A DNA stretch of 64,000 nt, from positions 177,097 to 241,096 of the forward strand of contig DIKK01000028.1 of assembly GCA_002423605.1 (NCBI GenBank), read 5' to 3'. The position numbers and the translations under genes are program-made. Shown here piece after piece: positions 42,389 to 45,201 of this stretch. The notes below the pieces were generated by a model. It did no database searches. It saw nothing but the letters and a program-made list of their open reading frames with translations, and had not been told where the DNA came from. This DNA comes from Dehalococcoidia bacterium UBA5620 (GTDB taxonomy: Bacteria > Chloroflexota > Dehalococcoidia > GIF9 > UBA5629). Position 1 is the stretch's first letter; each line of letters starts with the position of its first letter.

Positions 42389-42781
42389 ATGCACCTGACC
42401 ATTGATGGATACGGCAACAAACAAATAATGCAGGATGAGCAATTTATATATCAACTGCTGGACTCGTATCCCGCCAAAATTGGGATGACAAAAATCCAGG
42501 GGCCGATTGTATTTAGATACGTTACTTGTAAACTAGAAGATTGGGGAATTTCCGGCCTTGTTTTTATTGCCGAGAGCCATATCAGCCTCCACACTTTCGT
42601 GGAACGGCATTACATGAATATCGACGTCTTCTCTTGTAGAGATTTCGACGCAGAGCAAGTTATCCAAGATTTTGTAGGCCAGTTCCAACTAACAAGATTC
42701 ACCAGCCGCTTGATCAATAGAGAATGGAACATAAAAGACCTTCCTCAAGGCATCGAAATACCACAACTTTACTCAGTATAA
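42389..42781 (+). CDS. speD: Pyruvoyl-dependent AdoMetDC/SpeD-family decarboxylase proenzyme
   Basis: MHLTIDG, GISG..IAE/SHISLHTF cleavage motif, DVFSC. Confidence 0.88.
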   Translation: MHLTIDGYGNKQIMQDEQFIYQLLDSYPAKIGMTKIQGPIVFRYVTCKLEDWGISGLVFIAESHISLHTFVERHYMNIDVFSCRDFDAEQVIQDFVGQFQLTRFTSRLINREWNIKDLPQGIEIPQLYSV

Positions 42782-43665
42782 TGATGGATAATCTAGAGAA
42801 TGTCTTTCTACCACCATCAAACTTCGCAGGTTTACCATCTCCGTATACTGATTTTGCTACAGCCAAAGTAGTCATTCTGCCTGTGCCCTATGACAGCACC
42901 ACGGAATGGCATAGCGGCGCCCGCGATGGGCCGCAGGCTATCATCGCTGCTTCTCAATATTTAGAGATGTATGACATCGAGCTCGATAAGGAAATATTCA
43001 GAGCAGGGATTCATACTCTACCCGCAATCGAGCCCGTATTAAGCAGTCCGCAAAAGATGATACAACGAGTCTACCGCATAACCAAGGGAATAAGCCAAAA
43101 AGACAAATTTCTGGTTATGCTGGGCGGAGAGCATTCTGTGAGTCTAGGTGTAATCCACGCGCTCACTGAGAAATATACTAATCTTTGCGTATTGCAATTA
43201 GATGCCCATGCTGACCTGCGTGATAAATATATGGGAACTAAGTACAACCACGCTTGTATAATGCGCCGTGTGTTTGAACATTGTCCCATTACCCAGGTAG
43301 GAATTAGAAGTATCAGTTGGGAAGAGCAGCAATTTCTAAACCAGCATAATATGCGCCCGTTCTATTTACCTCAGACATCCACCAGCTTAGCATATCAACA
43401 ACAAATAATTAATGCACTCGGGGATATTGTTTACATATCTATTGATTTAGATGTATTTGACCCGTCGATCATGTCTGCAGTAGCCACCCCAGAACCCGGA
43501 GGCATGCAATGGCACGATGTTCTTAGTTTGCTAAAATTAGTTTCAGAACATAAGCATATAATTGGCTTCGACATTGTGGAACTATGCCCTGGACAAGGAC
43601 CTGCAGCCTGTGCCTTCACTGCTGCCAAACTGGCTTATAAGCTAATAGGCTATGCAGTACCCTAA
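42781..43665 (+). CDS. speB: Agmatinase
   Basis: GGEHS, DAHADL, DLDVFDP, TPEPGG. Confidence 0.93.
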   Translation: MMDNLENVFLPPSNFAGLPSPYTDFATAKVVILPVPYDSTTEWHSGARDGPQAIIAASQYLEMYDIELDKEIFRAGIHTLPAIEPVLSSPQKMIQRVYRITKGISQKDKFLVMLGGEHSVSLGVIHALTEKYTNLCVLQLDAHADLRDKYMGTKYNHACIMRRVFEHCPITQVGIRSISWEEQQFLNQHNMRPFYLPQTSTSLAYQQQIINALGDIVYISIDLDVFDPSIMSAVATPEPGGMQWHDVLSLLKLVSEHKHIIGFDIVELCPGQGPAACAFTAAKLAYKLIGYAVP

Positions 43666-43690: not shown

Positions 43691-43720
43691 TTGACATCAA
43701 ACGCCCCTATGGTTTATCAT
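43691..43720 (+). promoter_or_regulatory. Sigma70 promoter of greA
   Basis: TTGACA-N18-TATCAT. Confidence 0.6.
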
Positions 43721-43733
43721 TAGCCCGTTTAAA

Positions 43734-44561
43734 ATGACTCTGCATGGTAACAATGACGCTGTACCTCCTAATCTCACTCTAGGACAAGCTGCCGCCCAAT
43801 TCCTCCTCGAGTTGCCACCAGCAGACAGACACAAAGCTCAACAGGAGATATACAAGTTCGTTCGTTGGTACGGAGAAAAACGTCGACTGAGTGAACTGAC
43901 CATTCCAGAAGTAGCAAATTACGCCGAGCAAATAACATCATCTACAACTGAAGTGGCTGAAAAGCTGGCAGTTGTAAAGAATTTTATTACTTATTGTTAT
44001 AAGAAAAAACTTATTAAGAACAACCTAGCTGTTCATCTCAAGTCTAAGAAGGCACCACCTAAATCATTCCATCATTCCAGACGACATCACCGCAGGACAG
44101 TTTCCCTTACAGACCAGGGCTATGCTAACCTACAAGCTGAACTCGCTGCTCTCATAGATGAGCGACCGCACATAGCCGAAGAACTAAAAAAGGCAGCGGC
44201 AGACAAGGACTTTCGTGAAAATGCTCCGCTAGAAGCAGCCCGAGAGCATCAGGCTCACGTAGAAGGACGTATCCGAGAACTAGAGGCAACCCTGAAAGCG
44301 GCTACAATTATGGATGACAAGCAAACCACCAGCCACGAAATCACCATTGGCGATACTGTTGTGCTCCTAGAAACAATCTCCCGTGAAGAGGTAACCTATA
44401 CACTGGTTGATATAAGAGAGGCCGACCCAGACGCAGGTAAAATCTCCGTTGTTTCGCCCGTAGGTCAAGCAGTACTGGGCCTGCGCAAAGGTAACAAGGT
44501 TGTAGTGAAAGCACCAGCCTGTATCATAAATTACGAAATCAAAGACATCAAACATCATTAA
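43734..44561 (+). CDS. greA: GreA-family transcription elongation factor with a ~120-aa N-terminal extra domain
   Basis: LTDQGY..LQAEL, DKDFRENAPLEAARE, IGDTV, ISVVSPVGQAVLG. Confidence 0.9.
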   Translation: MTLHGNNDAVPPNLTLGQAAAQFLLELPPADRHKAQQEIYKFVRWYGEKRRLSELTIPEVANYAEQITSSTTEVAEKLAVVKNFITYCYKKKLIKNNLAVHLKSKKAPPKSFHHSRRHHRRTVSLTDQGYANLQAELAALIDERPHIAEELKKAAADKDFRENAPLEAAREHQAHVEGRIRELEATLKAATIMDDKQTTSHEITIGDTVVLLETISREEVTYTLVDIREADPDAGKISVVSPVGQAVLGLRKGNKVVVKAPACIINYEIKDIKHH

Positions 44562-44755
44562 TTTTCGCGGCTACCACAAGGAATCAGGTAAAAGCTCTTT
44601 TCTCAATAGCTAAAATCCCTCTACATAGCTTGGGGGTAAGCATATAAACTTAGGCTTAAAAGGTCGAAAGTTTGAAGCTAAGAAGAGTCCCCTAAAAATT
44701 AAACAGCCTCGTGGCAGTAAGGGAGGCGCTCCCCTCAAAACCATCGCCGATGATA

Positions 44756-45078
44756 AACATTTAGGTGTGCCCGTAGGTTCCTTCCAGGCTGTGCAATACC
44801 ACTACGCTAATACATGATATCGATACATCCAAATACCATCTGCCAGGCAGCCTAGAAGACCAGTGAATACCCCTATGCCAAAGATGCGGCTATAGCCAAA
44901 GGCTAGGTGAGCGATGCCTACAAAAGGGATACCAAGCTGGAGCACAAGTATATCGACGGTGTCAGTCTCATCGAAGACCACATATACTACTTTACTCCAA
45001 CGAAGCAAGGCCACCTAGCTTAACCTCAGCGATGCCGATTACCACCGTAAAGCGCTGGCCCAAGCACTGAAACTGTAG
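44756..45078 (+). pseudogene. C-terminal relic of an acyl-CoA dehydrogenase
   Basis: GVPVGSFQAVQYHYAN* / DIDTSKY / AIAKG*VSDAYKR / SDADYHRKALAQALKL*, matching the QFGxPIGSFQAxQHxxANM...AKAWVSDAY..GDADFHR pattern. Confidence 0.75.
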
Positions 45079-45201
45079 CCTCGTTAGCTAGTATCGCCAC
45101 TGAGACAACACGATAATTGCCTCGCCGGTTACCTTATGCTATACTGATGCACGAATCTGCTCATGAGGTTAAGTACTGTCTAAAACTGGGAGGTTTATAC
45201 T

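Follow-up and report, generated by a model that had tools for sequence, protein, structure and literature searches.

The question raised by this locus is what a GreA-type transcript cleavage factor does with some 120 additional N-terminal residues, and where those residues came from. The usual view of Gre factors is of small two-domain proteins that stand alone and reach RNA polymerase by diffusion. The window analysed here, a stretch of 64,000 nucleotides from a 1.66-Mb Dehalococcoidia genome that is 92% complete, holds an open reading frame (43734..44561, + strand, as are all features below; ATG to TAA) that codes for 275 amino acids arranged as a core-binding-like domain, a basic linker and a Gre factor, which we call long GreA. 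The frame is present exactly as a first-pass annotation of the window had claimed, and the strings singled out there (TLGQAAAQFL, EIYKFVRWYG, LSELTIPEVANYAEQI, KLAVVKNFITYCYKKKLIKNNLA, KSKK..HHSRRHHRR and DFRE) are all found in its translation. The class includes bioremediation organisms related to Dehalococcoides, and these bacteria are slow-growing and have small genomes.

The Gre part accounts for residues 123-275, which form a complete GreA. Its N-terminal coiled coil (residues 125-192, 44106..44309) was recognised by PF03449 (E 7.7e-19, 68.1 bits against a cut-off of 24.5), by the helices of the structural model and by the Foldseek match to 1GRJ, and its C-terminal globular, RNA polymerase-binding domain (residues 200-273, 44331..44552), beta-rich in the model, by PF01272 (E 1.5e-20, 73.4 bits against a cut-off of 26.9). 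NCBIfam GreA models cover residues 121-274 with scores slightly under their equivalog cut-offs, the best being a near miss for NF001263 (141.7 bits against 145), with TIGR01462 at 128.4 against a cut-off of 139. In the full-length AlphaFold2 model, which was built with 90 diverse sequences and has a mean pLDDT of 89.7, this part adopts the textbook Gre fold, with helices at 127-156 and 164-189.

The surroundings of the gene were also inspected. A near-consensus sigma-70-like promoter and no obvious Shine-Dalgarno sequence were observed in the start region (window 43691-43733); the putative promoter (TTGACA-18 nt-TATCAT, 43691..43720) has 11 of 12 matches in a consensus scan and lies 13 nt upstream of the ATG. 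The long greA mRNA may be leaderless or nearly so. Neither an Rfam RNA element nor a terminator-like site was found around the gene, and searches for sequencing runs with the locus returned DNA metagenome runs only and no RNA-seq run. Across ten diverse genomes no conserved operon partner was found, with one upstream gene common to two of them. In the window, a SpeD-like pyruvoyl decarboxylase frame (42389-42781) overlaps the start of an agmatinase-like frame (42724-43665) directly upstream of the gene, and a 640-nt gap (44562-45201) with small ORFs only separates long greA from rpsB. Comparison with Rfam at E <= 0.1 gave no match in this gap, which could represent either a long leader of rpsB or an RNA of a kind not yet recognised.

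Pfam searches with the close family returned only noise (e.g. TerB, SAM_GIDA_C). Residues 1-120 of long GreA gave no domain over threshold in Pfam or NCBIfam, as might be expected if the extension were an artefact or an inert remnant, arising from a wrong start, an assembly chimera or a decayed integrase fragment. We consider this explanation very improbable, and it is refuted by conservation. A word-seeded search with residues 1-120 returned 251 proteins, and Gre domains were present in all 119 homologs among the matches listed, where all but two are 273-288 aa long and the remaining two, of 175 and 255 aa, have the look of truncated proteins. The named homologs are called 'transcription elongation factor GreA' and come from Dehalococcoidia/Chloroflexi metagenome-assembled genomes. 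Over the 119 homologs, the first 120 residues match the Gre part in conservation, with a mean identity to the query of 62% versus 63%. An exhaustive profile search with the N-domain only extended the family to 359 clusters at 50% identity, of which 202 have E <= 1e-10, and in these the domain occupies residues ~1-115 of ~260-290-aa proteins; the exceptions that were inspected proved to be metagenome calls with a truncation, a frameshift or a chimeric join, and these too continue into Gre sequence. Therefore, the N-domain is found almost exclusively ahead of a Gre factor. Both parts lie in one open frame, with no stop codons, in 57 of 61 relatives of the same order, where the N-domain is single-copy. 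Moreover, long greA has no in-frame ATG, GTG or TTG near the start of the Gre domain, and therefore its Gre part would be made only as a fusion. The N-domain is also modelled with high confidence (pLDDT 90-97). The N-terminal part is a real, conserved domain and no chance extension of the reading frame.

The first-pass annotation had read into these residues the helix pattern of a XerC/D or phage-integrase SAM-like domain, and this proposal was borne out by structural comparison, profile-profile alignment, matches of single family members to recombinase models and genome scans. The domain (residues ~14-102, 43773..44039) is predicted to consist of four helices. When it was modelled alone with 23 sequences, AlphaFold2 placed helices at 16-26, 29-46, 57-70 and 74-90 and a short one at 98-101 (pLDDT 77), and 18 of the 19 best PDB matches of that predicted structure in Foldseek were integrase or integrase-like N-terminal or core-binding domains. 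The best was the integrase N-domain 3NRW (TM 0.75, rmsd 2.5 A, 103 columns, E 1e-2). With the full-length model 3NRW came first after the Gre-family structures (E 1.9e-3, TM 0.78), ahead of lambda Int, Tn1549 Int and others, and its rmsd ranged from 2.3 to 2.5 A over the two comparisons. Among predicted viral structures (BFVD), the top ~40 matches were phage integrases.

Sequence comparison led to the same families. Residues 37-108 of long GreA weakly match the N-terminal end of the NCBIfam models for XerC (E 5e-4) and XerD (E 1.8e-3). Across 61 diverse N-domains the XerD model was matched by 34 (best E 2.6e-5), XerC by 30 and the generic tyrosine recombinase model by 22, and any other NCBIfam family by at most two. 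In Pfam, 13 of the 61 matched Phage_int_SAM_4, 10 Phage_int_SAM_1 and three Phage_int_SAM_5, and other families in either database were matched by at most three. All of these Pfam matches are under the cut-offs (best E 0.0026 for SAM_4 and 0.0052 for SAM_1); long GreA itself had no Phage_int_SAM match above the gathering score, and a six-frame PF02899 scan of its own genome did not recover the gene. The choice of profile had a similar effect on searches of PDB sequences: the close-family profile (23 sequences) found nothing relevant, and the best match of a more diverse one was 3NRW_A over the whole domain length (E 0.018).

A further link to recombinases came from six-frame scans of 301 Chloroflexota genomes with the family profile, which gave two tiers of matches. 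The strong tier (E < 1e-17) consists of ~265-300-aa frames that are Gre fusions, and the weak tier (E 1e-7 to 1e-3) of 300-430-aa frames. All eight weak-tier matches that were inspected fall in the N-terminal domain of an integrase-like frame, and all five such frames run through Pfam carry both PF02899 and PF00589. An hhalign comparison with integrases selected by the family's own profile reached 99% (E 4.3e-18); the unbiased test is the comparison with Pfam-selected Xer N-domains of relatives, which gave 95.0% (E 3.6e-8) over 98 columns, spanning the entire domain and running on into a basic '..PK....P' linker. Taken with the predicted fold, these alignments indicate that the N-domain is a divergent, remote homolog of the tyrosine-recombinase core-binding domain that falls below Pfam thresholds. 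The catalytic domain of recombinases (PF00589, R-H-R-Y active site) is absent from long GreA, with the Gre factor in that place, and by its domain content long GreA is not a recombinase.

Recombinase-type sequences were seen in two other places. In the same genome a 142-aa open frame has a Phage_int_SAM_1 match (G000:C14:40389-40595, E 8.4e-5) and may represent either a core-binding-like domain that stands alone or an integrase that has been cut short. In another genome of the order (G039), long greA lies between two Xer-type recombinase genes within ~5 kb (contig C10, 69270-69521, 72078-72848 and 77410-77646); this arrangement is absent from the window and from ten other genomes and is therefore probably a coincidence.

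The segment that joins the two parts seems to have come along with the domain. This flexible, disordered linker of low complexity (residues ~103-122, KSKKAPPKSFHHSRRHHRRT, 44040..44099) is modelled with low confidence (pLDDT 53-75 over residues ~101-120). In 90 diverse members the corresponding segment (query residues ~101-122) is 19-33 aa long, poorly conserved in sequence and rich in K, R, S, A, T and P, and it is net positive in every one of them (+1 to +10, mean +5.5), which upholds the basic linker described in the first-pass annotation and shows that this property is conserved. Here the net charge is +8, with five His. Its first positions are the most constrained in charge, with Lys or Arg in 96% of members at K103 and K106 and in 80% at K105. 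In hhalign the linker aligns with the '..PK/R....P' segment behind the core-binding domain of Xer recombinases, and on this alignment the fusion point retains the recombinase interdomain linker.

How the protein is used depends in part on whether it can still cleave RNA. The coiled-coil tip D159-F-R-E162 (44208..44219), located by alignment to 1GRJ, aligns together with the following Asn with D41-L-K-E44-N of E. coli GreA. The two acidic tip residues coordinate Mg2+ and were found by mutagenesis to be needed for cleavage, and N45 and Y48 of E. coli GreA have been linked to contact with the backtracked RNA (PMC3132773). D157, D159, E162 and N163 are invariant in the 90 diverse members, and the acidic DxxE tip is thus intact, as the first reading of the sequence had it. 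The equivalent of Y48 is L166 (A164-P165-L166 of the motif ENAPL, window 44226-44234); this position is Leu in 88% of the 90 members and Tyr in ~10%, the latter including Dehalococcoides-like complete genomes. Therefore, the activity of the long form may differ from that of canonical GreA.

A survey of the taxonomic range of the fusion, which the first-pass annotation had suggested as a check, was carried out within Chloroflexota. By six-frame scans, 33 of the 35 class genomes sampled carry the fusion, as do 40 of the 266 genomes from other Chloroflexota classes. A search for related loci with the close-family alignment returned only close Dehalococcoidia genomes, all of them metagenome-assembled. 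Most of 61 class genomes have one short and one long Gre form; two have the short form only, and 11 have no Gre homolog besides the long form, among them complete genomes of 1.4-1.5 Mb in a single contig. In a tree of the Gre parts with one outgroup, the long forms and the short ones are reciprocally monophyletic (support 0.79 and 0.985), and since the Gre parts of long forms make up one clade, a single ancient fusion is indicated. The fusion has been passed down throughout the class Dehalococcoidia and in part of the other Chloroflexota.

The short form differs from the long one at the tip. In the genome studied here it is a 160-aa protein that adjoins lysS on another contig (G000:C9:144111-144590; locus L001 1240..1722), and in its tip, GGTENNAEY, the equivalents of D41 and E44 are Gly and Asn, with N45 and Y48 kept. 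The same holds for most short paralogs found beside a long form, which mostly read GGT(E/A/D/V)NNAEY, with Gly or Ser and Asn at the two acidic positions and N45 and Y48 mostly kept. In the five sampled class genomes without the long form, a short copy has D..D instead (e.g. GDITDSAQY, ADTVDNAEY). Since DxxEN is invariant in the long form, the long form is the sole Gre homolog in 11 of 61 genomes and the short form mostly lacks the acidic pair, the long form is most likely the main Gre factor of the class and the one competent for cleavage. The short form has the look of a paralog that enters the secondary channel and does not cleave. A complementary loss, in which the Tyr-to-Leu change of the long form would be matched by the short paralog, was considered and rejected, as genomes with the long form only (7 Leu, 3 Tyr) and those with both forms (14 Leu, 3 Tyr) show the same preference.

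These counts also bear on the role of the N-domain. The first-pass annotation had suggested locus-specific control of transcript cleavage as one outcome of tethering. A domain that is near-universal in the class, on a protein that is the only Gre factor of 11 of 61 genomes, points to a general housekeeping role, and locus-specific control therefore looks unlikely. A related idea is that the N-domain has kept a preference for certain DNA structures or sequences (bent or branched DNA, junctions, R-loop or collision sites) and delivers the only cleavage-competent Gre factor to polymerases stalled there, with the short non-cleaving paralog as competitor for the secondary channel. We judge this to be quite improbable; if true, recombinase-type DNA recognition would be physically and directly coupled to the rescue of backtracked transcription.

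We tentatively favour, at somewhat less than an even chance, a general housekeeping tether, in which the N-domain and the basic strap behind it hold nucleic acid, most likely duplex DNA, near the polymerase. It is established Gre biology that the C-terminal globule sits on the rim of RNA polymerase's secondary channel and that the coiled coil reaches to the active site, and in Gre-polymerase structures the N-terminus of the bound factor is outside, at the mouth of the channel. In long GreA the globule would dock on that rim as in E. coli, and the coiled coil would reach the active site, where D159 and E162 would help to hold the Mg2+ that cleaves backtracked RNA. A linker of 20-30 residues could then let the N-domain reach nucleic acid outside the channel, where the core-binding-like domain and the lysine/arginine-rich strap (K103, K105, K106) could grip it. 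Such a tether would keep a low-affinity cleavage factor at or near elongation complexes and raise its local concentration.

This tether reading is drawn from ancestry, charge pattern and geometry. It is favoured by a linker of low pLDDT that is always basic, by conserved basic positions in helix 2, in helix 4 and in the strap, and by the interdomain linker of recombinases that is retained at the fusion point. In the 90 diverse members these positions are R32, K/R41 and R44 in helix 2, R50 just after it, and K/R77, K/R82 and K90 on helix 4, with K/R82 conserved in 100% and R32, K/R41, R44, R50 and K/R77 in 79-89%. Counted against the tether, the folded N-domain is less basic than expected for a DNA clamp, and ~6 residues are missing before helix 2 in comparison with Xer N-domains. 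The Leu in place of Y48, the scores slightly under the GreA equivalog cut-offs and a gene neighbourhood that offers no clue to function also weigh against the reading of long GreA as a tethered cleavage factor.

Those same properties would be less of a difficulty if the N-domain had been re-used as a protein-protein module that docks on another factor or on a lineage-specific surface of RNA polymerase, for which the beta' jaw or rim region is an example. Docking would raise the affinity of the Gre factor or give it an advantage in competition for the secondary channel, and the N-domain would then resemble the N-terminal helical-bundle domain I of eukaryotic TFIIS, which is used for protein interaction. 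With a mean net charge of +1.3 (range -4 to +9), the folded domain is near neutral, unlike what is seen in Xer N-domains, and conserves acidic positions (E18, E30, E38, D49, E59, E65, D73) as well as basic ones, and protein docking therefore stays among the candidate roles. It also has an invariant tryptophan (W45) within a family-specific FVRW.G motif that has no counterpart in the Xer consensus, while the S.NT motif conserved in Xer sits in the very loop that is deleted in long GreA. In addition, the second Gre-like protein of most genomes would compete for the same channel. On the other hand, no partner is encoded nearby, contact with nucleic acid is the more typical use of a linker and strap that are strictly basic, and every inspected relative of the N-domain sits in a DNA recombinase. 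On balance, protein docking appears rather unlikely, with a probability that is still appreciable.

A third role was considered in view of the Gre part itself. The N-domain and basic linker might bind RNA, with the nascent transcript at its exit from the polymerase and the backtracked 3' segment that is pushed out through the secondary channel as the two candidates, and this would offset the missing Tyr and a weak basic patch on the coiled coil. The Leu that most members have in place of Y48 is in keeping with such a role, as are an acidic coiled-coil part (net -7 here, family mean -2.9) next to a strongly basic linker and the position of the bound N-terminus at the channel mouth. However, we found no RNA-binding precedent for core-binding domains, and members in which the Tyr is restored keep the same N-domain. 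RNA binding seems improbable.

The fusion is an undescribed variant of a core transcription factor that is conserved across a bacterial class. In full-text literature searches, no account was found of a Gre factor that is fused to the core-binding domain of a recombinase; the protein goes by 'GreA' or 'hypothetical protein' in public annotation, and neither Pfam nor NCBIfam annotates the N-domain. Acetylation of a GreA (cbdbA743, at K17) has been reported in D. mccartyi CBDB1 (PMC7918482). A link between that modification and long GreA was tried and rejected, as a Dehalococcoides-like genome (G081) has no Lys at position 17 counted from the likely start.

A whole bacterial class uses a Gre factor permanently joined to a domain of site-specific recombinases, a case that shows the core-binding domain working outside recombination. 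If the N-domain binds DNA, long GreA would be the first Gre factor to have a nucleic-acid anchor of its own, and it would illustrate a way to retain a low-affinity secondary-channel factor on the template. Should the N-domain bind polymerase instead, it would point to a docking site of a new kind. In both cases, the pairing with a short paralog that lacks the catalytic acids suggests that two factors together make up a regulatory system at the secondary channel.

Comparison with known systems helps to place the protein. The N-domain of long GreA is predicted to have the same four-helix fold as the N-domains of tyrosine recombinases (XerC/XerD, lambda Int; 3NRW, 3LYS, 1Z1B), shares detectable sequence homology with them and is likewise followed by a basic linker, although in recombinases the catalytic Phage_integrase domain comes next. 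The Gre part shares both Gre domains, the D..E..N tip and the fold with E. coli GreA (1GRJ; TM 0.90, rmsd 1.8 A, 33% identity), whereas canonical GreA has no counterpart of the N-terminal domain and linker, has Y48 where long GreA has Leu, and is the type that the NCBIfam equivalog models describe, for which long GreA falls slightly short. Gfh1 of Thermus (2F23, 3AOH) is a non-cleaving Gre homolog whose fold is common to the short 160-aa paralog. This paralog may act as a non-cleaving, Gfh1-like competitor; it lacks the D41/E44 pair, while Gfh1 keeps its acidic tip residues.

Long Gre fusions are known from Chlamydia (NF004969, 'transcript cleavage factor/unknown domain fusion protein', 718 positions) and from spirochaetes (NF011309, 906 positions), and both have the Gre factor at the C-terminus as in long GreA. 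Positions 563-705 of the first model and 748-901 of the second match long GreA in its Gre part only; their N-terminal regions are several times longer and have no match to the N-domain described here, and no link of either fusion to recombinases was found in the NCBIfam comparison. An analogy in layout exists with eukaryotic TFIIS, in which a cleavage module that enters the polymerase pore is joined through a flexible linker to an N-terminal helical-bundle domain for recruitment. The similarity with long GreA is one of arrangement, since the folds and ancestry are unrelated and domain I of TFIIS binds proteins, whereas the N-domain of long GreA would, in the reading that we favour, hold DNA.
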